Assembly (NCBI GenBank): GCA_016934315.1
Contig: JAFGSY010000021.1
Location: 25,470-89,469 of the forward strand
Direction of reading: 5' to 3'
DNA from: Candidatus Anaeroferrophillus wilburensis
GTDB taxonomy: Bacteria > Desulfobacterota > Anaeroferrophillalia > Anaeroferrophillales > Anaeroferrophillaceae
DNA: 64,000 nucleotides
Shown here: positions 16,581 to 62,888 of the stretch, in pieces
Layout of the letters: every line of letters begins with the position of its first letter
Position numbering within the stretch: the stretch's first letter is position 1
The notes under the pieces: generated by a model
Databases searched by the model: none
What the model was told of the DNA's origin: nothing
Seen by the model: the letters and a program-made list of their open reading frames with translations, nothing else
Program-made: the position numbers and the translations under genes

Positions 16581-16619
16581 GGGTTATATACCCCTTTGTC
16601 TGGGTCGGATGCCCAATAG
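16581..16619. promoter_or_regulatory. candidate enhancer (UAS): GGGTTATATACCCC ... GATGCCCAATAG
   Basis: A near-palindrome plus a 12-mer. The same 12-mer repeats at 20018-20029 and the palindrome-like box repeats at 19981-19993 and 30121-30133. Each site lies about 85-165 bp upstream of a sigma-54-like promoter. Confidence 0.4.
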
Positions 16620-19842: not shown

Positions 19843-19980
19843 GATTATAGCAGTTCTTATCTTTGCCCCATTACCCAGCCAAGGTTAGCGTGGTTGTCTC
19901 TTTACTCTTTTCTCGCCGCTCGCTTCTCATGATCTCCCTGTATTTGATCAGCCCAGTCTCTATTTGGTAAAAGATGTGTT

Positions 19981-20029
19981 GGGTATTTACCCCAGTCCTT
20001 GATGGTGGTGTGGGGTAGATGCCCAATAG
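19981..20029. promoter_or_regulatory. candidate enhancer (UAS): GGGTATTTACCCC ... GATGCCCAATAG
   Basis: Second copy of the motif pair seen at 16581-16619, located 130-175 bp upstream of the sigma-54 promoter at 20157. Confidence 0.4.
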
Positions 20030-20156
20030 TCATATCGGTCTTTCTTGGTCTACGTCTTGGCAAATTCAGCCCCTCTCCTTCGTATTTTTGTGCATCTGTT
20101 TGAATTGTTAATAGTTTTTAATAATATTTGACAATAACAGTAGGCGTTGAGTGCTT

Positions 20157-20172
20157 TGGCACGTATTGTGCA
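20157..20172 (+). promoter_or_regulatory. sigma-54 (-24/-12) promoter for the tetraheme cytochrome gene
   Basis: TGGCAC-GTATT-GTGCA with GG-N10-GC spacing, in an AT-rich region about 150 nt upstream of the ATG at 20325. Confidence 0.65.
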
Positions 20173-20324
20173 AAGTTTCATTTTGTAAGAGCCAAGTGAC
20201 CCTCTTTTGGGGAAGGGAGTCGCAGCAGGAAAGAGGAATTTTTTTAAAGTTCGTAAGAAGAAGGCCAATGTAAGGGAGAAAAGGTTTAACTTTTTATAAT
20301 GGATGGAAGTAAAGGAGAGGAACA

Positions 20325-20984
20325 ATGAAGAAATTAATGATGGCGTTAAGCATTATGGCTTTGGTGCTGGTTGCGGTGCCGGCGTTTGCCCTTCCCGGTG
20401 ATGGAATAGTGGGTTCCCCGCACGATATGAATGTTGTTTCAAACCCTGATGGTCAGGGACGGGTGTGCGCTTTCTGTCATACGCCACACCATGCTTTGGA
20501 TGATGCAAATGCCGATTATCTGCCGCTGTGGTCCCATACGATGACTACACAGACTTTTACTCCCTATGACAGCGTTACTTTGGATGCTGCGGTTACTGAT
20601 GTTCTGGCGGGTCCTTCCCGCCTGTGCATGAGCTGCCACGACGGGGCCATTGCCGTTGATCAGCATTATGCCATTGTCGGTACGGACTACCGGACCGGTG
20701 ATTCCTGGGGCAATATCGCTGTTGGCCAAAATGGCGACCTGACCAACGACCATCCCATCGGTTTTGACTATACCGCAGTCGCCGCGGTGGACGATGAGAT
20801 CAGGCCTGAAACAACCGCGACTACCAATCCGGCCATTCCCACTATTGCCGACCTGCTGCTGGATGGTCAGATCATGACCTGCTCCTCCTGTCATGATGTC
20901 CATAATACTGATAATAATGATGTGGATTTCCTGATCAATCTGCAAGCCGGTTCCGCTATCTGTCTGACCTGCCATGATAAATAG
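20325..20984 (+). CDS. tetraheme c-type cytochrome (paired-CXXCH type)
   Basis: 219 aa. Signal peptide MKKLMMALSIMALVLVAVPAFA. Heme motifs CAFCHTPHH, CMSCHDG, CSSCHDVH and CLTCHDK. Confidence 0.9.
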   Translation: MKKLMMALSIMALVLVAVPAFALPGDGIVGSPHDMNVVSNPDGQGRVCAFCHTPHHALDDANADYLPLWSHTMTTQTFTPYDSVTLDAAVTDVLAGPSRLCMSCHDGAIAVDQHYAIVGTDYRTGDSWGNIAVGQNGDLTNDHPIGFDYTAVAAVDDEIRPETTATTNPAIPTIADLLLDGQIMTCSSCHDVHNTDNNDVDFLINLQAGSAICLTCHDK

Positions 20985-21027
20985 GGTTCAGGAGTTGTGA
21001 ACAGTGCCGGATGTACATGTTAATCAG

Positions 21028-21062
21028 GGCAGCCGCCGGTGAACCGGCGGCTGCCTTTTTTT
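21028..21062 (+). terminator. intrinsic terminator
   Basis: GGCAGCCGCCGG-TGAA-CCGGCGGCTGCC followed by a T7 run. Confidence 0.75.
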
Positions 21063-21135
21063 GACTTGCGCTGCCGGTGGTCAGGGTGCTATCGTCAATT
21101 AAAGCAATCTGAAAGGCGAAGATTGATTTGGAAGG

Positions 21136-22251
21136 GTGCGAGGCAGGATCATGCAGAAGGTAAAGCAGAAAACGGGCAGGATCGGGTGGACATTCCTTGT
21201 TATGCTGCTGGTTGTGGGTAGTTTGTGGGGTTGTGCCGGTCCCCAGGTGGTTGAGGACCACGGTCCGGTTTTCTTTCCGCCGCCGCCGAATCCGCCACGG
21301 CTGCAGTATCTTACCAGCATCTCCTCCTCCCGCGATGTTGACCAGAAGAAGAGCAGCGGCTTTGCCCTGCTGGCGGTGGGTGATGTCCAAGCTGATCAGG
21401 TGAAGCCGGTCGCTAAACCTTATGGTCTGGCGGTTTTTGGTACGAAGCTTTATGTTTGTGATACCGGGTCGGCGCGGGTCATCGTCATTGATTTTGCCGC
21501 CAAAACCTTCGAATATCTCAAAGGGGACTACAGCTTTGGCAAGCTGAAAAAGCCCATCAATCTGGCCGTCGACCGGGAAGGGACGCTTTATGTTGCCGAT
21601 ACGGCCCGTCAGGAGATCCTCGTCTATGGCCCCAGCGGTAATTTTTTGCGGACCATCGGTCGGGAACAGGAGTTGAGACCGGTTGATCTTGCTGTTGATG
21701 GTGACTTTCTTTATGTCACTGATGTCAAAAAGCATCAGGTGATGATTTATGACCGGTTGACCGGCACATTCCTCCAGGGAGTGGGGAACCATCCTGAAAC
21801 ACCTTCGGAAAGTTTGTCCATGCCTTTGGGGTTGGCCGTCGACAGCAAGGGCAGCCTGTTCCTCTCCAACATGGGGCACGGACGGATGATCAATCTTGAC
21901 CGCGACGGCCATTTTCTTGGCTCATTCGGTAAAATGGGAGATGGCTTTGGTCAGTTTGCCCGGCCCAAAGGGGTGGCTATCGATGACCGGGACCGCATCT
22001 ATGTGGTTGATGCCGGCCACCAGAATGTTCAGATTTTCAACCATGAAGGACGTTTGTTGATGTTCTTCGGTGATCCGGGATTGCCTCTTGGTTCCATGAA
22101 CCTGCCGGCCGGCATCGCCGTCACCAGTGAAATGATTGACTTTTTTCAGCCGTATGTTGATCCTTCATTTCGCGTTGAACAGCTGATTTTTGTCACCAAC
22201 CAGTTTGGTGACCACAAGATTACCGTTTATGCCCTTGGTGAACTGAAATAG
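21136..22251 (+). CDS. NHL-repeat six-bladed beta-propeller lipoprotein
   Basis: Lipobox LWGC. Repeated P.GLAVD..G.LYV.D / I.V.D motifs (KPYGLAVFGTKLYVCD, PINLAVDREGTLYVAD, PVDLAVDGDFLYVTD, PLGLAVDSKGSLFLSN, PKGVAIDDRDRIYVVD). Confidence 0.85.
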   Translation: MRGRIMQKVKQKTGRIGWTFLVMLLVVGSLWGCAGPQVVEDHGPVFFPPPPNPPRLQYLTSISSSRDVDQKKSSGFALLAVGDVQADQVKPVAKPYGLAVFGTKLYVCDTGSARVIVIDFAAKTFEYLKGDYSFGKLKKPINLAVDREGTLYVADTARQEILVYGPSGNFLRTIGREQELRPVDLAVDGDFLYVTDVKKHQVMIYDRLTGTFLQGVGNHPETPSESLSMPLGLAVDSKGSLFLSNMGHGRMINLDRDGHFLGSFGKMGDGFGQFARPKGVAIDDRDRIYVVDAGHQNVQIFNHEGRLLMFFGDPGLPLGSMNLPAGIAVTSEMIDFFQPYVDPSFRVEQLIFVTNQFGDHKITVYALGELK

Positions 22252-22267
22252 TACTTATGGTTAGCGA

Positions 22268-22303
22268 GGGGACAGCCGCAGTGCTGTCCCCTTTTGTTTT
22301 TTT
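22268..22303 (+). terminator. intrinsic terminator-like hairpin
   Basis: GGGGACAGC-CGCAGT-GCTGTCCCC followed by TTTTGTTTTTTT. Confidence 0.65.
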
Positions 22304-22317
22304 AACCCACATGTTCC

Positions 22318-22935
22318 GTGAATGGAATGGCTGGCATGCCTGGGAAACAATGGTCGATTCTGGTGCTGGGGAGCATCGCTCTGGTGTTGCTGCTTCTTGC
22401 TGGTTGCGATCCCACAACCCGCCATAAGGTTCTGACTACCATTTTTGACGGGGTTCCCAGTCCGCTGCCGCCAGAGCAGGTGCTGGAAGACTATTACCGG
22501 CAGCGGCTGGCGGCGGAGGCGGAGCAGGCTGCCCAGACAAATGCCGGTGTGGCAGTTGGTGGCCTGGCGATCGGTTCCCGTCATCGGCCCTATACGGAAA
22601 AGAAATGTACCGACTGCCATGATTTCAGCAGTGCCGTCGGCCTGGTTCGTCCTCCTCGTGAATTGTGTGTCATGTGCCACCGTGATTTTGTGCTTCAGGG
22701 AAAAGGGCTTCATGTTCATGGGCCGGTGGCCATCGGCGACTGTTCTGCCTGCCACCTGCCCCATACCTCTGTCCATGGCTCCCTGCTGGAGCAAGATAAA
22801 ACCGACATTTGCAGCAAGTGCCACCAGGAACAGCGGCTGGCGGCTCTTATGCATGATCGGGTCGTGACCCGTGGGATGGCCTGCACCGACTGCCATGATC
22901 CCCATTATGGCGCCGCCCGGTATTTCCTCAAGTAG
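22318..22935 (+). CDS. pentaheme c-type cytochrome lipoprotein
   Basis: 205 aa with lipobox LLAGC and 5 CXXCH motifs (CTDCH, CVMCH, CSACH, CSKCH, CTDCH). Confidence 0.85.
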   Translation: MNGMAGMPGKQWSILVLGSIALVLLLLAGCDPTTRHKVLTTIFDGVPSPLPPEQVLEDYYRQRLAAEAEQAAQTNAGVAVGGLAIGSRHRPYTEKKCTDCHDFSSAVGLVRPPRELCVMCHRDFVLQGKGLHVHGPVAIGDCSACHLPHTSVHGSLLEQDKTDICSKCHQEQRLAALMHDRVVTRGMACTDCHDPHYGAARYFLK

Positions 22936-22944
22936 GGCCCGGTA

Positions 22945-24933
22945 ATGTGGCGTCTGAGCGGGGTACTGATCGGTATTGTTCTCTGTGGACTGCTTGTTCA
23001 TGTCACCCCGGTTGCCGCCCGGCCAAGGGTATTGTTGATGGTTCGGGACTTCCATAATTGGCTCGATTTCTCCTATGAGTATGACGCCCGGGAAAGCACC
23101 GGTGGTCGAGGTGAGGACCTGCAGGAGCGGGATCACCGGCTGGAGGAAGTCTACCATTTCGATATGGCCTATGCCGTCTATCATCCCCGGCTGGTGAACG
23201 GCCGCCTGGGCATTGACCTCGGCCTGAATGAAAATTGGTATGACGGCGGCAACGGCGAGTCGGAGAGTGATGTGGGCACGCTGCTGGAATATGACCTGAC
23301 GGGAACCTTTTTTGACCGTCGGCCCTGTCCGATAAGTTTTTTTTCCCGGTCTGCAAGACGATCTATCCAGCGCCGTTTTGCCGGTAACTATGATTTGGAT
23401 ACGGTCAATCATGGTCTTTCCCTGACATGGCGCAATCAGCAGCTGCCCATCAGCCTGGGTTTTCGCCGCTACAGCAGTGAAACCGATGGCCTGGAGCTTG
23501 ACCGGCAGCAGACCAGCGACACGGTGACCGCCTCGGCTTCCCATTTTTATGGTGACCTGAGCCGTACGGAGTTCAGTTTATATCATGCTGACGATGAAAC
23601 GGATTATGGTGTTTTTGGCCGGACTGAGGATAATCGAACAACCGAGTACAATTTGACCAATGCCCTCACCTGGGGCGATCATAATCGGCCCAGTACTCTC
23701 TCCTCTGCTTATCTCTACCGCAATGAAAACGGAACCAACGATTCCTCATCGTCTGACTGGCGGGAGTTGCTGCGGCTGCAGCTGGGCAAGGCTTTGCGCT
23801 GGACCCTTGACTATGACCAGCGCCGGAATGAGTATGAGGATGTAGAACGGCGGGAGGAGACTGTTGGCAGCCGGTTGGAGCACCAGCTATATGACAGTCT
23901 TTCTACCCGCCTTTCCTATGAAGAGCGGACCCTTGAGATTGACGACGGCTCGGAAGATGAGTGGGAAGGCGGCATCGGCTTCTCCTATCAGAAACAACTG
24001 CCGGCGGCAAGCCACCTTGCCCTTGGCTATGATTTTACCTACGGCGAAACCGATCGCCGCGGGACCGCCGATGACCGGTTTGTCATCGGCGAACCACTGA
24101 TCATGGAGCTCCTGGGGCCTAATGACTTGGTTTTTGCCGATGTGGTTGCTGGCAGCATCACCGTGCTTTCCGCCGATCGCCTAGTTACCTATGTGGAGGG
24201 TGTTGATTACACGATTACCCAGATGGGCCGACAGACGGAACTGCTGCTTACCGCCGGCAGCCTCATCAGCCCAGGGGACCAGGTTGTGGTTGATTACCGC
24301 TATCGGGTTGATCCCGGCATCTCTTTTGCCACCACCACCAACCAGGCATTTGCTTCCTTGTCGCTTTTTTCCCGTCGTTACCGTCTCTATGCCAGCTTCT
24401 ACAATCTTGACCAGGAGCTGCTTTCAGCCAATTCTGGCAGCGGTGACCCCATGCTGCTCAGCGCGGTGACCAGTACTATGCTGGGAATGGAGGCTGTGAG
24501 GGGTTACCATACCTGTGGTTTGGAGATTGCCGATTATGACTCAACTACCGATGCCAGGCAGTATGTCCAGGGGGTCTGGCGCTATGCCCGCTATTTCCGG
24601 ATCCATTACCTGATGCTGATGGTCCGTGACCGTTATACCCGCTATGAGGCGATGGCTGAGGATGTTGGTGGTGATGACGGGGAAAATGTTCTGGACGCCG
24701 GTTTTGCCTACCGGCGGCGCCTGCCCTATGGCGCCATGGCCGGGTTCAGCGTTAATTATCTCAACCAGCGTGGCCGGGATAATGACCGTGACGAGCTGGA
24801 TATTGATTGTTCCTACAAGCTGCGGGTCGGCCGTTTGGAGCTGGAGCTGCAGGCCACCCAGCAGTGGGAGTGGCAGGCCAGCCGCCGCGACCGGGACGAC
24901 CGGGTAATGCTGACGTTCCGCCGCTATCTCTAA
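22945..24933 (+). CDS. putative outer-membrane beta-barrel protein (porin-like partner of the cytochromes)
   Basis: 662 aa with a signal peptide (VHVTPVAARP) and no Cys or heme motifs. It is rich in alternating aromatic/polar stretches and in Y/R/D/G (LDFSYEYDARES, GLSLTWRN, FSLYHADDE, GIGFSYQKQ, AGFAYRRRL, VMLTFRRYL). Its position between cytochrome genes mirrors porin-cytochrome clusters. The fold is not proven. Confidence 0.5.
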   Translation: MWRLSGVLIGIVLCGLLVHVTPVAARPRVLLMVRDFHNWLDFSYEYDARESTGGRGEDLQERDHRLEEVYHFDMAYAVYHPRLVNGRLGIDLGLNENWYDGGNGESESDVGTLLEYDLTGTFFDRRPCPISFFSRSARRSIQRRFAGNYDLDTVNHGLSLTWRNQQLPISLGFRRYSSETDGLELDRQQTSDTVTASASHFYGDLSRTEFSLYHADDETDYGVFGRTEDNRTTEYNLTNALTWGDHNRPSTLSSAYLYRNENGTNDSSSSDWRELLRLQLGKALRWTLDYDQRRNEYEDVERREETVGSRLEHQLYDSLSTRLSYEERTLEIDDGSEDEWEGGIGFSYQKQLPAASHLALGYDFTYGETDRRGTADDRFVIGEPLIMELLGPNDLVFADVVAGSITVLSADRLVTYVEGVDYTITQMGRQTELLLTAGSLISPGDQVVVDYRYRVDPGISFATTTNQAFASLSLFSRRYRLYASFYNLDQELLSANSGSGDPMLLSAVTSTMLGMEAVRGYHTCGLEIADYDSTTDARQYVQGVWRYARYFRIHYLMLMVRDRYTRYEAMAEDVGGDDGENVLDAGFAYRRRLPYGAMAGFSVNYLNQRGRDNDRDELDIDCSYKLRVGRLELELQATQQWEWQASRRDRDDRVMLTFRRYL

Positions 24934-24960
24934 GGGCTTTGTAAACAGTCCATGTAAGAA

Positions 24961-25090
24961 GCTGTCAGGTTTCAGGTTTGTGGTCATTCTCGCCTGCCAT
25001 CCCTGGCCGGCTCCGAGGTGTCCGCCGCGAATCACCATCCGGGTGATTCGTCCGGCGGCCAAAACCGCTTAAAACCTGAAACCTGACAGC
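24961..25090 (+). repeat. intergenic palindromic element, copy 1 (130 nt)
   Basis: The outer 19-bp perfect stem GCTGTCAGGTTTCAGGTTT / AAACCTGAAACCTGACAGC encloses the conserved core ...TCATTCTCGCCTGCCATCCCTGGCCGGCTCCGAGGTGTCCGCCGCGAATCACCATCCGGGTGATTCGTCCGGCGGCCAAAACCGCT. Confidence 0.9.
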
Positions 25091-25159
25091 GTATTTCCCC
25101 CGGCTCATGTGCCATAGGTTTATGTCAAGAAAAGCGGAAAAATTGACGAAGGGATAGCT

Positions 25160-25729
25160 ATGATGGCCGATATTGAACCCACCTATAGACGTCGTTTTAT
25201 CCTCAAAATCTGTACTTGCTTTCTGGTGACCGTTGCTGCCGTCAGTTTTGGCCTCTACGGTTATCTTGATCGGCCATTTGCCGGCGGTTATCTGGCTGCC
25301 ATTTCCACTCTCGACCAGCTGCAGCATGATATTCTTCTCGGTGTTGTGGTGTCCATTGCCGTTCAGCTGCTGGTGTTTGCCGTGCTGGTGTTTGCCATCT
25401 CTCTTTTCTGGACCCATAAAATTGCCGGTCCTCTCTATCGCCTGAAAAAAACCTTTTGCCGTATTGGTGTCGGAGACTTTTCTCCCATGGCGGGGCTGCG
25501 CCGCGGTGATCAGCTCCAGGAGGTGCCGTCCCAGTTCAATGCCGGCCTGGCGGTCTATGGGGAGACCATGGCCCGGACCAGCCGGGAACTGCAGGCCCTG
25601 CTGGACGAGCTTGCGACCATGGAACGAGATGTCCCTACCGCCCGGATGGTCGAGCGGGAGCGGCTGTCGGGGGTTGATGCCCGTATCCAGGCACTTATAC
25701 TCGAACAGGAACGGCTGCTGCATGCGTAA
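25160..25729 (+). CDS. small 2-TM membrane protein with a HAMP-like linker (paralog of 26582..27172)
   Basis: 189 aa. Two hydrophobic segments, then WTHKIAGPLYRLKKTFCRIGVGDFSPMAGLRRGDQLQEV (HAMP-like) and a short coiled-coil tail. Confidence 0.6.
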   Translation: MMADIEPTYRRRFILKICTCFLVTVAAVSFGLYGYLDRPFAGGYLAAISTLDQLQHDILLGVVVSIAVQLLVFAVLVFAISLFWTHKIAGPLYRLKKTFCRIGVGDFSPMAGLRRGDQLQEVPSQFNAGLAVYGETMARTSRELQALLDELATMERDVPTARMVERERLSGVDARIQALILEQERLLHA

Positions 25730-26585
25730 AACTCTTGGCCTGATAGTTATGTTGCTGGTGGTTTCGTTGTTTCTTTGCCAGCTGGGATCAGAAAATACCA
25801 ATCCTCACTTGGGGGAGGTGGCCTGCGATGAATGTCACCTGGGTGTCCCGACGGCCGGCGATGCCGGCAGCAAGCTGTTTGTTGCCGATATCGAGACCCT
25901 CTGCCTCCGCTGCCACCGCGATATTACCCTCGCCATGTCTCATCCCGTGGCCCTCAAGCCCACGTTTTCCCTGCCTGTCGATATGCCTCTTGACTGGAAA
26001 GGGGAACTGACGTGCTCCACCTGCCATTACATGCATGAGCATGATGACCAGCCGTACCATGACCAGGCTGTTTTTCTCCGACGCAATTCGGTCGGCCAGG
26101 CGTTCTGTCAGGAGTGCCACCAGCAGGGCTTCATGATGAATCGGACCCTCGGTCACAGCCTGGCCAAAAGTGATGCCCATTACACGCCCTATGGCAGCAG
26201 TGCCGCCGCCGACAGTTTCGGTGGAACTGATGCATCCCCTCTGCTGGATGAGTCGTCATCGGCCTGCCTCACCTGCCACGATGGTTCCATAGCCCGTGAT
26301 GAAGGGACAACGGAGATGAGTGCCGGGGCAATCTCCCTGGGAGCAGGAATCTGGCGTCATGACGGTGATTACGGCCGCAACAGCCATCCCTTGGGGGTCA
26401 GGTATGGTGATGCCCGACGCCGGCGCAGCGGCTACCGTGATGCCGCCATGCTGCCCAGCGTCATCCGGTTGCCGGGGGGGAAGGTTGAATGTGTTTCCTG
26501 CCATAATCCTTACTCTACCAATGATTCACTGCTGGTTATTGACAATCGCGGGAGTCGGTTATGTCTGACATGCCATCTCAAATGA
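25722..26585 (+). CDS. heptaheme c-type cytochrome
   Basis: Start at MRKTLGLIVMLLVVSLFLCQ, overlapping the upstream stop codon. There are 7 CXXCH motifs. The C-terminal part (CLTCHDGSIA...SHPLGVRY...CVSCHNPY...CLTCHLK) resembles the 20325 tetraheme module. Confidence 0.85.
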   Translation: MRKTLGLIVMLLVVSLFLCQLGSENTNPHLGEVACDECHLGVPTAGDAGSKLFVADIETLCLRCHRDITLAMSHPVALKPTFSLPVDMPLDWKGELTCSTCHYMHEHDDQPYHDQAVFLRRNSVGQAFCQECHQQGFMMNRTLGHSLAKSDAHYTPYGSSAAADSFGGTDASPLLDESSSACLTCHDGSIARDEGTTEMSAGAISLGAGIWRHDGDYGRNSHPLGVRYGDARRRRSGYRDAAMLPSVIRLPGGKVECVSCHNPYSTNDSLLVIDNRGSRLCLTCHLK

Positions 26586-27172
26586 AGAAAAAGTCCTATG
26601 TCCGGCGAACCTACCTGGTTGACCGGACTTTCCAGGTTCGTTTTTCGCTGCTTTTTTTCGGTGGCGTAATGGTGCTCGGCCTGCTGGCCGGGGTGGCCAC
26701 CTATGTGCCGGCCAGAAATATGCTTGTCCGCCATCTCTATTCACCCCATATTTCCTTTGCCGCCTCCGGCGAGATTCTCGCCAGGCTGTTTATCTGGCTG
26801 AATGTCGGTTTTGCCTTACCGTTGATTGTCTTTTCTCTGATGCTGGTTACCTGGTATGTCCGGCGGACGGCCGGTTCTCTGCAAAGGCTGCGGGCCAGCC
26901 TGGCAGTCTTGGCCGCCGGCCGGATTCCCCCAGCGCTTTTTTTTCGCCGTCGTGACCCTTTAAACGCTGTTGCGGCGGACCTCAACCTGATGGTCGTGAG
27001 CTTTAGGGACCGCCAGCAGATCATTATCCAACACCTGCAGGCTGCCAGAGCGTTGTTGAAGATTGAGGATGAGCGTGAAGGTTTGTCTCAGCCTTTACCA
27101 GTCTTGGAACAGGTGCGGCGGGAGGTTCAGGCAGCCCTGGAGGTCATTCCCGAGAGGGAGGCTCTGCTATGA
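26582..27172 (+). CDS. small 2-TM membrane protein with a HAMP-like linker (paralog of 25160..25729)
   Basis: ATGA overlap with the cytochrome stop. The N-terminus is KKKSYVRRTYLVDRTFQVRFSLLFFGGVMVLGLL, a second TM follows, then WYVRRTAGSLQRLRASLAVLAAGRIP. Confidence 0.6.
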   Translation: MKKKSYVRRTYLVDRTFQVRFSLLFFGGVMVLGLLAGVATYVPARNMLVRHLYSPHISFAASGEILARLFIWLNVGFALPLIVFSLMLVTWYVRRTAGSLQRLRASLAVLAAGRIPPALFFRRRDPLNAVAADLNLMVVSFRDRQQIIIQHLQAARALLKIEDEREGLSQPLPVLEQVRREVQAALEVIPEREALL

Positions 27173-28215
27173 AGGGGGGATGTGGCGAACAGTGGCGATG
27201 CATCCTTTTTCTGATGTTGTTTATGCTGGCCTCCTGTTCAACCGGAACCCTGCAGGAACAAGGTGGCCTCGAGCCCGTGCCGGTGTGGCCGGCACCGCCT
27301 GCAGCAGCTCGGATTGTCTGGGTAGAGGAGGTCAGCCGGTTTCAGGATATTTGTGGCCAGCCAGGCTTCTGGCAGCGGCTCAAAGAGGTCCTGGTGGGCA
27401 AAATAAGCACCGGCATGGTTAAACCCTATGGCATCTATATAGACGAGGAACAACGTCTGTACGTGGTTGATTCAGGCAGCGGTTTCATCCACCTGATGGA
27501 TCCTAATGCCGGCTGCTACCGGGCCATCCCCGGGCCGGATGACGGCTTGGTGCTGCCGTCGCCCATCGGTGTTGCCGGTGATGATCAGGGGCAGGTGTTT
27601 ATCACCGATTCCAAGTTGGGGAAGGTGTACCGCTACCTTCCCGATGATGGTTCCCTGCAGCCGCTGACCAGGATGACCCTCAAGCGGCCCGCCGGGATTG
27701 CCTACCACCGGCTCAACCGGCTGCTCTATGTGGCTGAAGCGGGTGTACACCAGGTGGTGGCCTTTGACCGTCAGGGGATCGAACAGTTTCGTTTTGGCAG
27801 CCATGGCAAGAGGCCGGGAGAATTTAACTTCCCTACTGCTGTCTGTGTCGATCAGCGGGGCCAGGTACTGGTGACGGACGCCCTTAATGCCCGGGTGCAG
27901 ATATTTACCCCTGAAGGCCAGTTTGTCGCTGCTTTCGGGGAGCCCGGTGATACTTCCGGGACCTTTGCCAAACCGAAAGGGGTGGCGGTCGACAGCGAGG
28001 GGCATGTCTACGTCTGTGATGCCCTGTTTGATGCCGTCCAGATCTTTGACCAGGAGGGCAGGCTGTTGCTAACCTTCGGCCAGAGTGGCTCTGCGCCCGG
28101 AGAGTTCTGGATGCCCAGCGGTATCAGTATTGACAGCCGCGATTATATCTATGTTGCTGATTCCTATAATCGCCGGGTCCAGGTATTCAGATATGTGAGG
28201 GAAGGCGAAAGGTGA
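27169..28215 (+). CDS. NHL-repeat beta-propeller lipoprotein (second copy)
   Basis: Lipobox LASC. NHL blades include PYGIYIDEEQRLYVVD, PIGVAGDDQGQVFITD, PAGIAYHRLNRLLYVAE, PTAVCVDQRGQVLVTD, PKGVAVDSEGHVYVCD and PSGISIDSRDYIYVAD. Confidence 0.85.
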   Translation: MKGGCGEQWRCILFLMLFMLASCSTGTLQEQGGLEPVPVWPAPPAAARIVWVEEVSRFQDICGQPGFWQRLKEVLVGKISTGMVKPYGIYIDEEQRLYVVDSGSGFIHLMDPNAGCYRAIPGPDDGLVLPSPIGVAGDDQGQVFITDSKLGKVYRYLPDDGSLQPLTRMTLKRPAGIAYHRLNRLLYVAEAGVHQVVAFDRQGIEQFRFGSHGKRPGEFNFPTAVCVDQRGQVLVTDALNARVQIFTPEGQFVAAFGEPGDTSGTFAKPKGVAVDSEGHVYVCDALFDAVQIFDQEGRLLLTFGQSGSAPGEFWMPSGISIDSRDYIYVADSYNRRVQVFRYVREGER

Positions 28216-28265
28216 AAGGCGAAAGGTTGAAGGATCAAGGCTCAAGGATAAGAGAGAAAGGTTGA
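28203..28265 (+). repeat. heptad-periodic array (9 x 7 nt, AGG-phased)
   Basis: AGGCGAA AGGTGAA AGGCGAA AGGTTGA AGGATCA AGGCTCA AGGATAA GAGAGAA AGGTTGA. It spans the NHL gene stop and the spacer before the next cytochrome gene. Confidence 0.8.
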
Positions 28266-28325
28266 TGGCTGGCGGAAAGGGACTGTCGGGTGAGTCGGAG
28301 ACTGCGGGATAAAGGTAGGAAGCAG

Positions 28326-29972
28326 ATGAAAAAGAATGCTGAAGGTTGCAGGATGGTGTTGGCGGTTGTCCTGGTGATGCTGCTGGGTATCTCGACGGGA
28401 TGGGCGGCCGGGGTTGCCGATACCCGGCACAATTTGTCGGTGAGTGGCCCCGGCGAGATTGTAGCCACCGCTGAGGTGCGGATCTGTATCTTCTGCCATA
28501 CGCCCCACCATGCCAGTCCCACCCAGCCGTTGTGGAGCCGGGAGCTGAGCGGAGCTTCCTACGACCTTTATGCCTCGACCACCATCAAGGCCCAGCCGGG
28601 GCAGCCCACCGGCGCCTCCCGTCTCTGTCTCAGCTGTCATGACGGCACCGTGGCCCTCGGGCTGCTCCACGATGCCGCAGTACCGATCACCATGGCCGGC
28701 GGCATCACGACCCTGCCGTCGTCCCGATCCACCAACTTGCAGACCGATCTTGCCGATGATCATCCCATCTCCTTTGCCTACACCGCTGCTCTGGCTGCTG
28801 TTAATGGTGAACTGCGGGATCCCGCAACCCTGCCGGCGGCCATTAAATTGGAGGAGGGCAGCCAGCTCCAGTGCACCGCCTGCCACAACCCCCATAAGGA
28901 TCCATACGGCAAGTTCCTGGTGATGGACAACGCCGGCGCGGCGCTCTGCGTCGCCTGCCATGATAAAACCGGCTGGGCATCAAGCACCCACGCCACGGCT
29001 TCGGGGGTTGCCGGCCAGGGCTGCAATGCCTGCCATGTACCCCATAATGCCGGCGGCCGGGAGCGGCTGTTGAAAAGTCAGCAGGAAGAGCAGAACTGTT
29101 TTCCCTGCCATGACACCAGCGGCAGCGAGATCGATGTGCTGACCGATTTTACCAAGTTGCACCATCACCCGGTGGAGGCAACAGCCGGTGAGCATGATCC
29201 CCTGGAGGACCCGCTCACTGCCCTCTATCACGTGGAGTGCAGCGACTGTCACAATCCCCACCGGCTCAACGACACGGCGGCGACGCCGCCTTTAGTGACC
29301 GGCCAACTGGCTGGCGTCAAGGGGGTTACCATTGCCGGTCTGGTGGTGGCCGAATCCCAGTACCAGTATGAGATCTGCTTCCGCTGCCACGCCGACAACT
29401 CCTTTTCCCCGGTGGTCGCCATTCCCCGGCAGATCCAGGAAGTCAACGAGCGGCTCCGCTTTGACCCGGCCAATCCCTCCTACCATCCGGTGGCCGCCAT
29501 CGGCAAACAGCCCTCGGTTCCCAGCCTGAGGCCGGAGTATTCGTCTGCCAGCATGATCTACTGCAGCGACTGTCATAACAGCGACACCGGAAGCATGGTC
29601 GGTGGTGCCGGGGCTGATGGCGTCCATGGCTCCAGCAATCCCCGGCTGCTGGTGGCCCGCTATGAGCAGGATGCCTACCCGCTGAGCTACGCGGAAAGCA
29701 ATTATGCCCTCTGTTTCCGCTGCCATGATCCCAATGTGCTCATGGACCGTTTCCGGTCCAACTTTCCCAGTCACCGTAGTCATGTGATTGCCAAGCAGAC
29801 TCCCTGCTCCGTCTGTCACGATCCCCATGGGGTGCCGCTGGTGGGGGGCGCTACCACCACCGGCAACGCCCATCTGATCAACTATGATAGCCGCTTTGTT
29901 ACCGGCACCTATAATTCGGTGACCCGCAGCTGCACGGTAAACTGTCATATGATGAACCCCCGCAGTTATTAA
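28326..29972 (+). CDS. multiheme c-type cytochrome (11 CXXCH plus a C-terminal CX3CH)
   Basis: Start at MKKNAEGCRMVLAVVLVMLLGISTGWA within ORF 28290..29972. The first 210 aa or so are homologous to the 20325 tetraheme protein (CIFCHTPHH, CLSCHDG, DHPISFAY, CTACHNPH, CVACHDK). The C-terminus is SCTVNCH. Confidence 0.85.
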   Translation: MKKNAEGCRMVLAVVLVMLLGISTGWAAGVADTRHNLSVSGPGEIVATAEVRICIFCHTPHHASPTQPLWSRELSGASYDLYASTTIKAQPGQPTGASRLCLSCHDGTVALGLLHDAAVPITMAGGITTLPSSRSTNLQTDLADDHPISFAYTAALAAVNGELRDPATLPAAIKLEEGSQLQCTACHNPHKDPYGKFLVMDNAGAALCVACHDKTGWASSTHATASGVAGQGCNACHVPHNAGGRERLLKSQQEEQNCFPCHDTSGSEIDVLTDFTKLHHHPVEATAGEHDPLEDPLTALYHVECSDCHNPHRLNDTAATPPLVTGQLAGVKGVTIAGLVVAESQYQYEICFRCHADNSFSPVVAIPRQIQEVNERLRFDPANPSYHPVAAIGKQPSVPSLRPEYSSASMIYCSDCHNSDTGSMVGGAGADGVHGSSNPRLLVARYEQDAYPLSYAESNYALCFRCHDPNVLMDRFRSNFPSHRSHVIAKQTPCSVCHDPHGVPLVGGATTTGNAHLINYDSRFVTGTYNSVTRSCTVNCHMMNPRSY

Positions 29973-30042
29973 GCCCCTACCTCTCGCCGGCATTTGTCCG
30001 TCTTCCCTGCTGGAGCAGATCCCTTGTGCCAGGGTGATTCGT

Positions 30043-30079
30043 AAAAAACCGCCGCTGTTTTGCCGCCGGCGGTTTTTTT
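30043..30079 (+). terminator. intrinsic terminator
   Basis: AAAAAACCGCCG ... CGGCGGTTTTTTT hairpin directly after the 11-heme cytochrome gene. Confidence 0.75.
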
Positions 30080-30271
30080 ATGGCCGCGGCGGGTCAAATC
30101 CCCCTTAAGGGGAAGGGGATGGGTTATTTAGCCTGTGCTCTATCCTGTCATCATGAGTTATATCCCTCTCTCCACTCACTTGCCTTCTTAGTTCCTTGCA
30201 TATCTCATTAAAATTATTGATTTTATTAGATCCTGAAAAAAATTAAAGAAAGTTAAGAATATTCTGTTCTA

Positions 30272-30287
30272 CGGTATACATTGTGCA
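30272..30287 (+). promoter_or_regulatory. possible sigma-54 promoter for the giant cytochrome gene (weak -24 box)
   Basis: CGGTAT-ACATT-GTGCA has correct GG-N10-GC spacing. The -12 half ATTGTGCA is identical to that of the 20157 promoter. It lies about 220 nt upstream of the ATG at 30509 in AT-rich DNA. Confidence 0.35.
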
Positions 30288-30508
30288 TTTTAACTCAGTC
30301 ACAGTTGCAAGGCCTTCTTCAGGTTGTAACAGTAATCTGCCCTTAACGTCATCCCCATACCCCAATATGAGTGATGATCAAAAGCGGCTGGCTTTATGGA
30401 GGTGAACTGCAAAAAAAAGAGATTACCGAACAGATGATATGCAAGCAACCAGTCTGTGGCGAATAGTGATGCCGCCGGCAGACAACGGAAAACTTTTGGA
30501 GGGGAACA

Positions 30509-33500
30509 ATGAAAAAAATTCATCTAACCACCGCTTTGCTGGCGGCAGTGATTCTGCTGTTTGGTATGGTGGGCAGTTCCATGGCAATCCATCCCGACAT
30601 TGATTTGTTGGATGCCGACGGAAATCCCATTTCCTCGGCCGGTGGGCTGCAGCCGGCATTCAGTTATAAAACAACCTGTGGCGCCTGCCACAACGGGGTC
30701 AACCTTGACGGCGAGGGCAATGTCCTGCTGAGCTACGATGACATCGAACAGCACAGCCTGCATGCCCAATTGTCTGCCAACCAGTTCATGGGTTGGAACA
30801 TCTGGAATCCCGATTCAGCCAATTCCTACAAAAAAGGCCCGGCTCCGAAAGGCAAGAACTGGGTCCAGAGTCCCGGCCATTTCGGCAAGTGGTGACCGCC
30901 GTCAGCGCGCCAGTTGGCGCATCTTTTTGCTGACGCTTCAAATCCCACCTACGATGCCGCGAGCGCCAAATATAATGACGGCGGCATGAATCTAAACTTT
31001 ACTCCTTATAATTTTGGCAGCGAGGCTGCTTTTAAACAGCAGGTTGACCTGGCCATTGCCGGCATGATGCAGGATTGCGCCGAGTGCCATGTGGGCGGCG
31101 GGGCGATGGAATATGTTCCGGCCCCGACGGCCAACGCCAATGACCGGGTTTCTCTGCGTGACATCTATGCCACGCCGCTCAGCTATACCAAAGATTCCGG
31201 CGGCAATACAGTTCCTTTCGGGCCGTTTGACAGCAATATGTTTACCGCCTTCAACAAGTTCATCGATACTTTCGATGTTGACGGCGACGGTGATAAGCTG
31301 GAAGTGCTGGATGCCGACTGGCCGAATACCGGAGTCATCGAAATGGACTGTTTCCTCTGCCACCTCCAGGGCTACAAGTACCAGGACCGGGTTGCCGCCC
31401 AGCGGGCAGCCAAGTTCGACGTCTCCCGGGTGGTCGGCAGCGGTGTCGGGACGGCCAACACGCTTGCCTGGGATCCGAATTCCACCGTGCCGCCTGAAGG
31501 CTATGGTACCGACGTGACCTATAACAACTATGTTCAGGATAATGGTTCCGGCAACCTTAAATTCCACTATGCCATCAACTATTACCTGAAGGAATTTCCC
31601 CCCAGTGACAACTGTGCCTTCTGCCACTTCGGCAAACCCGCCGTCGACTGGAAGAAGCGCGGCGACAACTGGGCCAATGCCACCCAGACCTATGAGGTCC
31701 ATAAGGCTGTTGGCTGCATAGGCTGTCACCAGGCTAAAGTTGGCACGGTGATCGGTACTGACAACGTTGCCGACGGCAACCTCGGTCAGTGCGATCCGGC
31801 CAAGGGGATTGCCCCCTACAGCAGTGCCTGGAATAATACCGACGGTACCGTCAAGACCTGCGAAGACTGCCATCTCAATTACGGTTATGATGAAGATCTC
31901 GGCACCTACAGCCCCGCATACGGCGCTCCCAACCCAACCGGTGCCCATCAGGCTGCCGGGTTGACGGCGGTGCTCTGTCAAACCGGTGAAAATGGGGTGG
32001 CCAACGCCAGCCACCTGGATATTATCGACTGTGCCGCCTGTCACGTTCGCAAAATTGCCGATCCGGCCACCAACCCCTGGAACACCGGCGGTGCCATCGT
32101 TGATGCCACTGGCGCTGACATCGAAGGCCGCATGGCTGACCATGAAAACGAATATGTCCATCGGGAGATGTATGACCCCGACGACGATGCCACCAACATC
32201 ACCTTTTCCTGGCTGCAGGGCAAAATTATTGCCACCAGCGTCCTGAACACCGTCTACTGGCGCGACAAGAATGATGTCAACCACGACGTCAACGCTGATG
32301 GTCGCGGGGGCGGCATGGACACACCGCTGACCACCCATGTCCTGGCGGTCAATGAAGTCAACGGTTGGACAAACCTGGCCGAAGACAACCATGGTCATAT
32401 TACTAGTACGGAGATTGGTGCCCGGATCACTGCGCTGGAGAATGGACTGCCGGCTCTAACCGGCAAACCTGGTACGCCGGTCATCAAAATCTCAACCATG
32501 GCCGTGCCTTTCAAGGTCAATCACAACATCGCTCCGAAGCAGTACGCCATCGGCAAGCAGTGTACCGACTGCCATGGCAATACTGCTGATCTTGACAGCG
32601 ATGGCGACGGCATCAGCAACGGCGGCATCTTCAACGGCGCCTACACAATGCAGGGCGTCAATATGGATATGACCAATCTTGCTACTCAGGTAACGCCACT
32701 GACTAAGGCGAACTCCTTTGAGGATGTGACAGACTTCCATCCCAACACCAAGAACAAGTTGGCTACCCGGACCATTCCCATCAAAAACTGGAGTGGCCTG
32801 ACCACCATGCGTGCTGTGGACCGCAGTGAAACCCTGTGGGAAAACACCTTCAGGGCCCGTAATACCACTTGGCATGCCAACGGTGATCCCATCGTCGGCG
32901 GCGCCATCCCCTTCCCGGCTCCGGGGTCAACCGGTGCCAACACCAAGGGTCTGTGGCTCAAGGTCGAAGTTGACACCAATCTGGACGGCGTTACGGATGT
33001 GACCCGGACCCGGATGGTCAATTCCTTTGTTGACAGTACGGCTGGTATGTCTGGTCTGTTGAATGACCTTGGCTCCGGTGCTACTGATGGAACAGACTTC
33101 ACCGATGACTTCGAATTTGTGATTTCCGACAATGGTGCCGGCGGTCTGCAGATTGAAGCCAAGGCCGGCAATCAGATCCGTCTGAATCCGGCAACCACCT
33201 CCGGAGCCACGGGGCTCAATTTGGTGGGTTATGTCTGGACGCCGACCCCGATTATCGGTGTAGACGGCAATCCATATCCTGGTCGAACCGAGTGGGTTGC
33301 CTATCTGAATTCCATTAATCCAAACGATGTCGGTATCGGGCTTGATCCGATTGCCGATATCGCCACCATCGATGGTCAGGATCCTGATCTGGTGCTGCCT
33401 TACATTGAGATCATTAAGGGTAGTACGGTAACCTTGGTTGCCGACGATCCCGCTGCCGCCGGGGTTTTCAGGTATACCTGGACCTTCAGTGACAGCACTG

Positions 33501-33910
33501 CGGTTGGTGAGGCACAGTCGGTCCAGTATACCTTCAATACTACCGGCCTGGTTACCGTTTTCCTGACGGTCATCGACGAAGAGAACAAACTTTCCCAGCA
33601 GTCGGTCAAGGTCAATGTCATTGTGCCGCCGCCGGTAACGGGTCTTACCTATGATGCAACGGCCGGCGATCCGAATGTCACCTTGCATCTGGTCGGTCTG
33701 CCAACCCATGATAGACTTTATTTCTACTATGGTGACGGCCTCAGGCAGCAGATCTATGACTCTGCAGATTCCTTTGACTTGGTTCACACCTATCGTTTCA
33801 AAAGCAAGTATCTTACGGGAGGGAACTACAGCTACAATACCTCGGTACGGATCTACAATGGCAGCACCCTGGTTGAAACGCTGCAGGAAAACGTGCTGAT
33901 CCCTCAATGA
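30509..33910 (+). CDS. giant secreted octaheme c-type cytochrome with a PKD-like C-terminal domain; reading frame interrupted by one in-frame TGA (30893-30895), so either a candidate selenoprotein or a pseudogene
   Basis: ORFs 30509..30895 (signal peptide plus CGACH) and 30914..33910 (7 CXXCH, no signal peptide, no ATG/RBS) are in the same frame, separated only by a TGA. A hairpin follows the TGA. The C-terminal segment FRYTWTFSD...YTFNTTGLVTVFLTVIDEEN is PKD-like. Confidence 0.6.
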
Positions 33911-41096: not shown

Positions 41097-42521
41097 CTAT
41101 CTCTTATCTTCCAATTCCTGCTCCCTGTCTTCCGGCTTCAGCTGGCGACTCCGGTGGGTGCCGGAATCCAGGTCCCGATGGTAATCAAAATCGGGATCGG
41201 TGTCGGTGGTATGGCAGTTCAGGCAGGTTTGCTTGGCCACCGGCCGCAGGATTGATGCCTTTGGCTCCTGGGGGTGACCGGCCGCCGGACCGTGGCAGGC
41301 TTCACACTGGACATTGGTCAGTCGCGGGGTTTCTCTCAGGGTGCGGAAGCCGGCGGCAACATTGGTGTGGTTCATGCCGGTCACATGGCAGGGCAGGCAG
41401 GCGGGATCAAGCTCCTTCTGCCGCCGGATCAGGGTGATGATCGCCCGGGCGTGGCGGGTCTGCCGCCAATGCTGGAACTGCTGCTGGTGGCAGGGGACGC
41501 AGGCCTGGATGCCGAGGTAGGCGGTGCCGGGCTTGAACGTTTGTTGCTCACCATTTTCCTGCTGCATGGGCCTGGTACTGGTCCGTTGTTGGCTCTGCTG
41601 CTGGAGATGCCGGTGCCGCCAGGTGTCGTATTCGGCAACCATCGTTTTGATCTGCTGATCTTCACCGGTGTTCTTGGTGTCAAGCCGGCGGCAGTGGGGG
41701 GCGGACAGGGTCCAGCCTTTCGGTTGCGGCTGGCAGTCAATGTGGCTGACATATTGACTGCCTCTGACATTGTTGTTGACGATCATCGTCTGACGGTAGA
41801 TCTCACGCTGTCGACTGAGTCCCGGCTGGTGACCCTGGATCACCAGGTCAATGCCGGCAACCCGGTCGAGCCAGGCAGTCAGGCTGGGGCGTTCGGCGTG
41901 GGCCATGACGATGAAAAGATCGTGGTTGACCGAGCGTTGAATGTTGGTGAGGGCAGCCACCGGGTCGGTGATGGTCAGCGGCTCGCGGTGCAGATAATCT
42001 CCATACTGGGGATCGATGACAGCGGTGATCAAGACCCTTTTGCCGCCTTTGCGCAAAAGGAGATAGGGCAAAAAGTAGTTCTGCTGCTGTTCCCGGTCGA
42101 CCAGATTGGCGCACAGAAGATTGACCGGTGAACCGGCTGCCAGCCGGCGGAGAAAAGGGGCACCAAAGTTGTATTCCTTCTCGCCGATGCCGATGGCGTC
42201 AACCCTCATCATGGCGTAGGCGGCAACAATGAGCTCCGCTTTCTTCTCCTCCACCGGTCCCGATTGGAGGAAGTTGTCACCGGTGTTGAGGATGATGGTA
42301 TGTTCCCGCCCGCTGCCGTCAACCAGCTGGTCATAGGCGGTTTTCTGCCGGGCGAGCCCACCCGCCTGCTTACCGTGTCAGCCGCAGGGTTCAATGGTTC
42401 CGAGAAGATTGCCGCTGTAGATGATCCTGATGGCCTGATCGTCGGCCAGGCAGGGAATGGCAAGAGGTGCTGCCAGGAGTAAGAGGGTGTAGAGGATCAG
42501 CCGGCAGACTGCGACAGTCAT
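41097..42521 (-). CDS. secreted metallophosphoesterase/5'-nucleotidase-like domain fused to a tetraheme cytochrome (c554-like); one in-frame TGA (42380-42378), candidate selenocysteine
   Basis: ORF 41097..42254 lacks a signal peptide. Extending upstream in the same frame through the TGA gives MTVAVCRLILYTLLLLAAPLAIPCLADDQAIRIIYSGNLLGTIEPCG-TGA-HGKQAGGLARQKTAYDQL...PVEEKKAELIV. There are 4 CXXCH motifs at the C-terminus (CVPCH, CLPCH, CEACH, CLNCH). Confidence 0.6.
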
Positions 42522-43933: not shown

Positions 43934-44084
43934 TGCGAAATCGTTCTGGTGGGTTATAATCAGCCGTTGGTGGCGGTCCCTAATGGGGTCATCGGTTATC
44001 TGTTGTTGGTGTCTATCAGTTTCGGTAGGATTGTGGCAATGATTATGTTGAACTTCTTTTTCCCGTTTGTCAGATATGGAGATA

Positions 44085-45278
44085 ATGATGGTGTGCAATG
44101 GCCGGCGATGTCTGCTGTTTGTGCTGTTTATTGTGATTCTCATGGGTGGTTGTAAAACAATGGAGTCCTGCGGGGTGCCCGCCGGGTCTCCCTACCGGAA
44201 CCCGGCAGAGCTGGAACGCGGTGAGATTATCCATGTGCCCACCGGTCTCAGCGTCAGTGAGGCGGAGTTTTTTGACCTGACGGCCGGCAACCGGCTTTTC
44301 TACATTGGCGAAGCCCATGATAATATCTATGATCACCGGCTGGAGCTGAAGATTATCAGGGAACTGCAGCGGCGCTTTCCCGGCCGGCTGGCGGTGGGCA
44401 TGGAGATGCTCGGCCGCCAGAGCCAGGAGGAGATCGACCGCTGGCTGGCGGGAGAGCTGGATGAGAAGGCATTTCTGGAGGTTTTTGGCCGCGATTGGGG
44501 GGTGCTGGATTTTCCTTACTATCGTGAACTGCTGGAATTTATCAGGAGCAACCACATCCCTTTGCTGGCTATCAACGTCAGCAAGGCTGAAAGGATGTCT
44601 TTGGTCCAGGAGCGGCGGGAATTGCTCGGGGGGAGCTATCCCGAACCCGATGACCCCTATCAGAAAGAGGCGCTGGCCGCCATGTTCAGCGGCCATGACC
44701 ATGGGCACCTGGAGTTGTTTTATGCCATGCAGCTGCTCTGGGAGGAGACGATGGCTGAATCGTTGGTCAGTTACCTGGACAGCGATGCCGGCCGGGATAA
44801 AAAGATGGTGGTCATTACTGGAGGTTTTCACTCGGCCTACGGTTTCGGCGTTCCCCGAAAGGTTCTGCGGCAGTGCAAATGGCCCTATGTCATTGTTGCG
44901 TCAACCACCCCTGCTGCACTGGTGGAAAATGAGCGGCAGTTGATGGAGGTGGATTTCCCCTCTCTCCCCCTCTATGTTGCCGACTACCTCTGGTGTGTGC
45001 CTTACCGTAACTTGAAGGATGACCAGGTTCGCCTCGGCGTCCATCTGAGTGACCTTGAAGATCGGGTGAAGGTGGCGGCGGTGCAGCCGGATAGTGCCGC
45101 GGCTCGTGCCGGTGTCCAGGCTGAAGACCTGATCGTCGTTATCGACGGTCAGCCGGTATCCCGCAGCCTTGATGTTCAGTTTGCCGTTCTGGGGAAAAAA
45201 GCCGGTGACCGCTGCCGGCTTATCCTCAGCCGCGACGGACAGGAATTTGAGGTTACCGTTGAGTTCAGGTCGAACTGA
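44085..45278 (+). CDS. ChaN/Tiki-family lipoprotein with a C-terminal PDZ domain
   Basis: Lipobox LMGGC. The ChaN-type motif is FYIGEAHDNIYDHRLELKIIREL...GMEM. The C-terminal segment VRLGVHLSDLEDRVKVAAVQPDSAAARAGVQAEDLIVVIDGQPV is PDZ-like. Confidence 0.7.
   Translation: MMVCNGRRCLLFVLFIVILMGGCKTMESCGVPAGSPYRNPAELERGEIIHVPTGLSVSEAEFFDLTAGNRLFYIGEAHDNIYDHRLELKIIRELQRRFPGRLAVGMEMLGRQSQEEIDRWLAGELDEKAFLEVFGRDWGVLDFPYYRELLEFIRSNHIPLLAINVSKAERMSLVQERRELLGGSYPEPDDPYQKEALAAMFSGHDHGHLELFYAMQLLWEETMAESLVSYLDSDAGRDKKMVVITGGFHSAYGFGVPRKVLRQCKWPYVIVASTTPAALVENERQLMEVDFPSLPLYVADYLWCVPYRNLKDDQVRLGVHLSDLEDRVKVAAVQPDSAAARAGVQAEDLIVVIDGQPVSRSLDVQFAVLGKKAGDRCRLILSRDGQEFEVTVEFRSN

Positions 45279-62491: not shown

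Positions 62492-62888
<397 letters not shown>

Follow-up and report, generated by a model that had tools for sequence, protein, structure and literature searches.

UshA-like proteins with a Cys-x-selenocysteine (CxU) motif form one of the families in the Global Ocean Sampling (GOS) selenoproteome, 'UshA-like (COG0737), CxU', with 76 selenocysteine (Sec) and 92 cysteine (Cys) sequences (Zhang & Gladyshev 2008; PMC2398784). They are listed again in a 2022 review (PMC9312934) and in a 2026 review of the prokaryotic selenoproteome, in which the NCBIfam model NF041198 is cited (PMC13188914); the reviews give WP_013162925.1 and WP_263046620.1 as examples (PMC9312934, PMC13188914). Here we describe a minus-strand gene in a stretch of 64,000 nucleotides from contig JAFGSY010000021.1 of Candidatus Anaeroferrophillus wilburensis (hereafter the window), which very probably encodes a Sec-containing member of this family, with Sec placed at an in-frame UGA. 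The selenoprotein identity is not new; the family is already catalogued, and the window gene belongs to a sub-clade that curated models and gene callers have missed. A Thiovibrio orthologue (Thiovibrio sp. JS02, P0053) is named 'UshA-like (seleno)protein' by NCBI. A search for literature joining metallophosphoesterase, multiheme and selenocysteine found nothing, the family being indexed as 'UshA-like'.

The NF041198 family and the window protein have in common a signal peptide, the UshA fold, the motif PCG-U/C-x5-GGLxR, a c554-like tetraheme domain, the Sec position and a downstream hairpin of the selenocysteine insertion sequence (SECIS) type; the seed clade of the model, however, has a linker of ~80-90 residues (alignment A1, columns ~358-435) that is missing from the window protein. 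With UshA, CD73 and SoxB the shared part is the N-terminal fold, and the window family still shows a recognisable GGxAR helix and G-D motif II, but motifs I and III of these enzymes are lost, a tetraheme cytochrome takes the place of the substrate-binding domain, and the loop after strand 1 would carry Cys-Gly-Sec. Cytochrome c554 of Nitrosomonas europaea (1bvb/1ft5) likewise has four CxxCH motifs in the same spacing pattern; it is a stand-alone electron carrier, whereas the window version is the C-terminal domain of a fusion and has no gene link to hydroxylamine oxidation. Finally, the N-terminal strand and the Cys/Sec loop (residues 32-117) recur in NF049981, 'UshA-like (seleno)protein family 2', but this model of 262 positions has a CxxU motif (PMC13188914) and no tetraheme match, and the window protein, at 46 bits against a cutoff of 140, is not a member.

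Reading frame and conservation of the TGA codon

Translation of the minus-strand frame from ATG 42521 to TAG 41099-41097 gave 474 codons, interrupted only by TGA 42380-42378, which directly follows IEPCG; the surrounding peptide is AIRIIYSGNLLGTIEPCG-[TGA]-HGKQAGGLARQ, or in its shorter form IIYSGNLLGTIEPCG*HGKQAGGLARQ. A further in-frame ATG lies at 42542, so that the start is either 42521 or 42542. The mechanically derived open reading frame (ORF) 41097..42254 begins with a GTG within a domain and lacks a signal peptide; the same curtailed product, 41097-42254, is what the public gene call gives (P0001, 385 amino acids). The original prediction had described this ORF as leaderless and starting in mid-domain, and had extended it across one TGA to the upstream ATG; translation confirmed both statements, with all coordinates correct. 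The signal peptide that it placed upstream of the TGA is present as a hydrophobic leader of 26 residues, which is required for export of a protein bearing c-type haems; a CxxCH scan located four haem motifs in the C-terminal third, at 41501, 41399, 41306 and 41225. The gene comprises the following features:

41097..42521, minus strand: complete coding sequence of the predicted selenoprotein, 474 codons including Sec48, stop TAG 41099-41097; a start at 42542 would add 7 residues
42444..42521, minus strand: signal peptide, residues 1-26, read from the sequence as a hydrophobic leader, with the cleavage site inferred between MTVAVCRLILYTLLLLAAPLAIPCLA and DD
42378..42389, minus strand: P45-C46-G47-U48 motif, aligned with PCGC of Cys homologues and with TGA in ~80 related loci
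42347..42366, minus strand: bacterial SECIS-like hairpin, identified by folding, published criteria, covariation and comparison of Sec with Cys energies
41622..42434, minus strand: 5'-nucleotidase/UshA-like metallophosphoesterase-fold domain spanning roughly residues 30-300, its dimetal ligands degenerate (NCBIfam, profile matches, Foldseek on the model of a Cys homologue)
41181..41519, minus strand: cytochrome c554-like tetraheme domain (PF13435, CxxCH scan, phmmer match to 1bvb)

A protein search over 5.8 billion sequences returned 97 relatives, and DNA was taken for 80 loci of GTDB species genomes and for the best 80 metagenome loci, in which the codon of interest was read inside the motif x14-[P/T]CG-?-x3-9-GGLxR. 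The 22 closest relatives after the window's own product have 30-57% identity over ~75-88% of the query, and those inspected begin just past the UGA position; most top matches of a search among 1.84 billion representative proteins likewise align from their first few residues. Longer relatives, P0024, P0026, P0030, P0033, P0038 and P0063 among them, have PCGC where the window has PCG-TGA. In the GTDB genomes the motif codon was TGA at 15 loci and TGC or TGT at 38, while in the metagenome set, which holds the closest relatives, it was TGA at 65 of 66 motif-bearing sites and TGT at the remaining one. Four loci reached through curtailed database proteins (L162-L165, including a complete Thiovibrio genome) also had TGA. 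Altogether ~80 related loci from several phyla carry TGA within PCG-[TGA]-x5-GGLxR, with the peptide conserved on both sides.

Sec forms were found in metagenome-assembled genomes (MAGs) labelled Acidobacteriota/Blastocatellia, Eisenbacteria, Myxococcota, Deferrisomatales, Desulfobulbia and 'Deltaproteobacteria'; Cys forms predominate in Planctomycetota, Verrucomicrobiota, Scalindua and Fimbriimonadales. At each Sec locus examined, the signal peptide and strand 1 are encoded by an ORF of 49-65 amino acids that ends at the TGA and that gene callers treat as an orphan. Thus the expectation set beforehand in the original prediction, that homologues would have Cys or Sec at the aligned position, was borne out by PCGC or PCG-TGA, and at no Sec locus examined did a start downstream of the TGA come with a signal peptide of its own. 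The identical TGA is present in an independently assembled version of this sequence (Logan SRR13394436, L001). Judged from these sequence comparisons, TGA 42380-42378 is not a chance nonsense codon. Elsewhere in the window TGA serves as the ordinary stop of 8 of 19 well-supported genes, and UGA is therefore not generally reassigned. Two loci, L117 (with TGA at 459 and at 3179) and L038 (with two distinct copies), hold paralogous PCG-U genes a short distance apart, and each copy has a separate TGA and hairpin.

The downstream hairpin and proposed decoding of the UGA

In the bacterial SECIS consensus the apical loop measures 3-9 nt and the upper stem 4-16 bp, the minimum free energy is -7.5 kcal/mol or lower, the first two loop positions include a G (usually G[G/U]), and UGA and loop lie 16-37 nt apart (PMC13188914). 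Folding of the window region with ViennaRNA gave a stem G.CGGGUG / CGCCCG.C, with 6 contiguous pairs and an outer G-C pair (42366/42347), an apical loop GGCU (42358-42355) 19 nt from the UGA, and a free energy of -11.1 kcal/mol; set against the quoted values, rather than scored with bSECISearch, this hairpin agrees with the consensus on every point (PMC13188914). It spans the codons A-G-G-L-A-R. The hairpin that had been predicted 13 nt past the UGA is accordingly present, and is refined here to CGGGUG (42364-42359), GGCU and CGCCCG (42354-42349) plus the outer pair; a SECIS prediction had been proposed as a check, and the hairpin fits the published bacterial model.

Hairpins in the same interval were compared between Sec and Cys forms. 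The best hairpin had a mean energy of -12.1 kcal/mol in 75 distinct Sec sequences as against -9.8 kcal/mol in 47 Cys sequences, the latter of higher GC content; after adjustment for GC the Sec-minus-Cys difference was -3.5 kcal/mol, the Sec hairpins being the more stable (Mann-Whitney p = 0.0007). Covariation was scored on a gap-free alignment (A4) of 43 Sec loci covering 48 nt from the UGA, in which the stem occupies columns 15-22 with 27-34; this set omits loci with a second type of hairpin, and a few of its members were picked by eye as having the same type. Stem cells were paired in 80% of cases, compared with 68.5% in column shuffles, none of 500 of which reached 80%, and the covariation score of 0.309 fell to 0.128 or less when the register was slid by 1-3 nt. 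Of the 8 stem pairs, 4 show double-sided changes. Pair 18-31 (23 sequences with U-A, 11 with G-C) couples a wobble base with the choice of AGG or CGG for Arg; pair 16-33 takes five pair types, and pair 21-28 is C-G, A-U, G-C, G-U or U-G. Within the window clade, the pair 42360/42353 is U-G in the window, G-U in L002, C-G in L083 and A-U in L084-86, L163 and L164.

A second hairpin type, CUGGCCC-GGN-GGGCCAG, with a 3-nt loop, was seen in other clades, ~19 nt past the UGA (~8 nt further 3') and over the codons L-A-R-R-A; it occurs at L006, L007, L009, L031, L038, L043, L049, L058 and L059, and further at L125, L126, L136, L137, L140, L141, L146 and L149. With two hairpin types among the clades, the position and shape of the SECIS would have shifted within one protein family. 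An Rfam scan of the window at gathering threshold returned no family matching the hairpin, which is uninformative on a SECIS either way.

Several observations weigh against the assignment of the gene as a Sec-encoding member of the family. ARAGORN found no tRNA-Sec in the window, and the sel genes that the original prediction had suggested looking for were missing there, no selA, selB or selD being recognisable with NCBIfam among the 20 larger ORFs; the Sec machinery of the organism is thus unconfirmed, not absent. A 73-nt fold of the window region, at 56% GC, gave z = 0.27 relative to shuffled sequences, so that the single hairpin is not exceptional, and the stronger evidence for it is the comparison among loci. 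Its stem overlies the conserved GGLxR peptide, which Cys homologues encode also, and part of the pairing is a by-product of coding; furthermore, the covariation counts are per sequence among related loci, not per evolutionary event. The whole-protein NF041198 score, 261 bits with U read as C, does not reach the curated cutoff of 275. To our knowledge, no member of the UshA-like CxU group has been the subject of experimental work.

Two other accounts of the TGA were considered alongside its decoding as Sec. If it were a real stop, the locus would be a pseudogene, through a nonsense mutation or an assembly error, or else two genes, encoding a secreted peptide of 47-54 residues and a leaderless protein of 385 residues from GTG 42254. 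Gene callers yield exactly such a split, and no single-sequence statistic sets the hairpin apart from chance; but the recurrence of the same codon and flanking peptide in ~80 loci of several phyla, with Cys codons in others, effectively refutes a stop, as does its presence in the independent assembly, and the 385-residue product would have neither strand 1, the GGLxR helix nor a signal peptide and yet four CxxCH motifs that need periplasmic maturation. We regard this account as extremely improbable. It is also improbable, though somewhat less so, that the UGA is recoded as a residue other than Sec, either Cys through a tRNA(Sec)-like tRNA(Cys), or Trp or Gly by near-cognate readthrough. For some Desulfobacterota and Acidobacteriota a SelB-dependent insertion of Cys at UGA has been suggested, Cys functions at the aligned position in many homologues, and Sec machinery was not found within the window. 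Against such recoding, the hairpin covaries and agrees with a SelB-type SECIS model, the curated description of the family is that of selenoproteins, and other genes of the window use TGA as a normal stop.

In the proposed decoding as Sec, modelled on the established bacterial pathway, SelB with Sec-tRNA(Sec) would recognise the hairpin 42366-42347 while the ribosome stands at the UGA, and Sec48 would be inserted.

Fold, family placement and possible function

The C-terminal domain matched PF13435 (cytochrome c554) at residues 340-411, with 52.6 bits against a cutoff of 20.8, and the C-terminal 155 residues matched cytochrome c554 in the PDB (1bvb, phmmer, E = 1e-8). For the whole protein the top NCBIfam match was NF041198, 'UshA_like_PCGU' ('UshA-like (seleno)protein'), at E = 1.9e-77, followed by weak matches to SoxB, UshA and cyclic-nucleotide phosphodiesterase. 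A profile of the family matched vertebrate and bacterial 5'-nucleotidases (E ~1e-31 to 1e-24) and SoxB (~1e-20) over its first ~300 positions. An AlphaFold2 model was made of the Cys homologue P0030, not of the window protein, from an alignment of 41 sequences (mean predicted local distance difference test 88.8, predicted template-modelling (TM) score 0.85); Foldseek matched this model to E. coli UshA (1oie, 2ush), CD73 and SoxB, with E ~1e-21 to 1e-18 and TM ~0.5 over ~330 columns. The predicted assignment of the N-terminal part to the 5'-nucleotidase metallophosphoesterase fold is solid on these profile matches and the model of the homologue, and the 'metallophosphoesterase-tetraheme cytochrome fusion' of the original prediction has held up.

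Both features sought for the UshA-like CxU family were found, namely homology to the N-terminal domain of COG0737/UshA and an in-frame UGA in a C-x-U motif aligned with Cys (a Cys/Sec pair); for the NF041198 equivalog, the PCGU motif and the C-terminal tetraheme domain are present, and for PF13435 the gathering score is exceeded and four CxxCH motifs are present. The NF041198 match is not end-to-end but split into two stretches, the linker (profile positions ~272-358) being absent from the window clade. Long-linker forms score 545-590 bits in one stretch (Thiovibrio 590, P0026 545), whereas short-linker forms score 188-270 bits in two (clade relatives 211-270; the Cys forms P0030, P0024, P0038 and P0063 188-268). 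Short-linker forms fall under 275 bits because ~80-90 residues of linker are missing. The short-linker PCG-U/C proteins, comprising those of the window, L082, L084, L163, L164, P0024, P0030, P0038 and P0063, would go unnamed under NF041198. The window clade is a small one: of the 1.84 billion representative proteins, 8 are reached at E <= 1e-30 and 103 at E <= 1e-10. The family as a whole is widespread in anaerobic sediment and soil lineages. Since gene callers split these genes at the UGA and NF041198 misses the short-linker clade, nearly all close relatives in databases are leaderless, curtailed 'cytochrome c' fragments; the value of the present analysis lies in correcting that annotation, and in the question of what a haem-wired Cys-x-Sec site does.

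When aligned with 5'-nucleotidases and with its own family, the window protein shows N-L-L in place of the D-x-H of motif I and G-E-K-E in place of the G-N-H-E of motif III, and the full set of a catalytic calcineurin-like metallophosphoesterase (D-x-H, G-D, G-N-H-E, H, G-H) is incomplete. D82 and the histidines of motifs IV and V are retained in the window clade and variable across the family. The 5'-nucleotidase substrate-binding domain, PF02872, has no Pfam match in the window protein, the C-terminus of which is the PF13435 tetraheme domain instead. Apart from the haem motifs, conservation throughout the family extends to C46, U/C48, the start of the GGLxR helix, G81, G120 and N139; of the polar features of the UshA-like domain, only C46, U/C48, N139 and the basic R or K of GGLxR are so conserved. 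Because motifs I and III are lost and these are the only polar features conserved, we think that the window protein is not a phosphoesterase. A role as a nucleotidase was considered specifically and is very unlikely, the dimetal motifs I and III being lost and the substrate-binding domain replaced.

The CGU motif occupies the loop that joins strand 1 to helix 1, at the point where the metal site is normally reached by motif I. In the corresponding loop vertebrate ecto-5'-nucleotidases, aligned here through the snake-venom enzyme, have two Cys (gkCTGEDCyGG) where the family has C-G-U/C, the first of them aligned with C46; in CD73 a disulfide forms in this loop. The Cys pair of ecto-5'-nucleotidases and the C-G-U/C loop may be alike by coincidence, or may mark a shared structural hot-spot.

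As for function, the protein may, tentatively, be a periplasmic oxidoreductase with a haem-fed Cys46/Sec48 redox centre; to this specific form we assign somewhat less than even confidence. By analogy with established pathways, the Sec translocon would export the protein and a periplasmic haem-attachment system would then load four c-type haems. Electrons would pass along the haems to or from the Cys46/Sec48 centre, which would be a selenenylsulfide or a Se/S ligand pair acting on a small substrate. In this way a Cys-x-Sec site carried by a dead phosphoesterase fold would be connected to a four-haem wire, with a putative role in periplasmic electron transfer. The C-x-U context of the original prediction stood in so far as the motif is present and aligned with Cys in homologues, while its function as a 'classic redox motif' is at this stage a supposition. 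The genomic surroundings lend the redox mechanism no support, as neither the Pfam context of 4 homologues nor neighbour clustering at 131 loci gave conserved neighbour genes that would provide a functional context.

It is also possible, though rather unlikely, that the gene encodes a selenoprotein in which CGU is not a thiol/selenol couple, Sec and/or Cys serving instead as a metal or haem ligand, for example to a haem that has no conserved distal His or to a remodelled metal site in the phosphoesterase fold, with sulfur- or selenium-type chemistry. For four haems there are only three histidines outside CxxCH (H357, H416 and ~H456) with full or nearly full conservation; the haem domain is a homologue of c554, in which one haem is five-coordinate. 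D82 and the histidines of motifs IV and V, which the window clade retains and other clades lose, would also suit such a role, as would the sulfur enzyme SoxB among the structural relatives; the remnant metal ligands, however, are not conserved across the family, and no conserved sulfur-metabolism neighbours were found. We hold it doubtful, going further, that the short-linker PCG-U/C clade is a functionally distinct class of periplasmic enzyme, with a Sec on a gutted phosphoesterase scaffold partnering a non-bis-His haem as ligand or catalyst; if true, this would be a Sec-haem active site without characterised precedent.

A second in-frame TGA and other features of the window

The gene shares the window with a dense set of multiheme cytochromes and with a second, uncatalogued cytochrome containing an in-frame UGA. 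This eight-haem cytochrome of ~1133 amino acids (30509-33910, plus strand) is interrupted by TGA 30893-30895 in the context SPGHFGKW-[TGA]-PPSARQLAHLF (in longer form NWVQSPGHFGKW-U-PPSARQLAHLF), with a GCGCC-AGUU-GGCGC hairpin downstream. All 31 of 31 close homologues are N-terminally curtailed at the TGA point, many of them starting with 'LAHLF', and the TGA recurs in an identical peptide context, with the GCGCC-AGUU-GGCGC hairpin after it, at two NCBI MAG loci (L166, L167). The second such cytochrome claimed for the window in the original prediction is therefore there, with its TGA conserved elsewhere. The protein matched no NCBIfam family, and no close Cys-form homologue was seen. Going by this conservation in related sequences, TGA 30893-30895 gives an independent indication that the organism decodes Sec, and the cytochrome may represent an uncatalogued selenoprotein family, possibly the more novel item of the two.

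The multiheme cluster, 15626-33910, lies on both strands; from the number and adjacency of its genes it may be akin to extracellular electron-transfer modules. Besides the eight-haem gene, the following features, with haem numbers from CxxCH counts, were recorded in it:

15626-16417, minus strand: multiheme cytochrome, 12 CxxCH
18451-19842, plus strand: multiheme cytochrome, 13 CxxCH
20325-20984, plus strand: multiheme cytochrome, 4 CxxCH
~22600-22935, plus strand: pentahaem ORF, 5 CxxCH
22945-24933: ORF of 662 amino acids with no family match, after the TAG of the pentahaem ORF
25824-26585, plus strand: multiheme cytochrome, 7 CxxCH
27169-28215: NHL-repeat protein
28290-29972, plus strand: multiheme cytochrome, 11 CxxCH

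The stop at 22933-22935 was considered as a further recoded UGA and rejected, being a TAG that marks an ordinary gene boundary.

In the window the neighbours of the UshA-like gene encode a major facilitator superfamily (MFS) transporter, an Ogt-type methyltransferase, TrpA and TrpB (trpA/trpB) and a PDZ protein. All-against-all clustering of neighbours at the 131 loci gave clade-specific housekeeping synteny only, with a RadA-like gene in 16 and a MobA-like gene in 14. The PDZ protein is encoded divergently (44067-45278, plus strand; Cofac_haem_bdg and PDZ by Pfam in L001); it matched NF041199, 'Trx7/PDZ domain-containing (seleno)protein', with 38.9 bits against a cutoff of 300 and in the PDZ region only, and is probably not a member of that family. 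A scan of the window for promoters and terminators gave counts at chance level. The only Rfam matches in the window were two tRNAs and these two elements:

7998-8314, plus strand: cspA thermoregulator element, 79.6 bits against a gathering score of 78
62494-62888, plus strand: bacterial RNase P class A RNA, 319.7 bits

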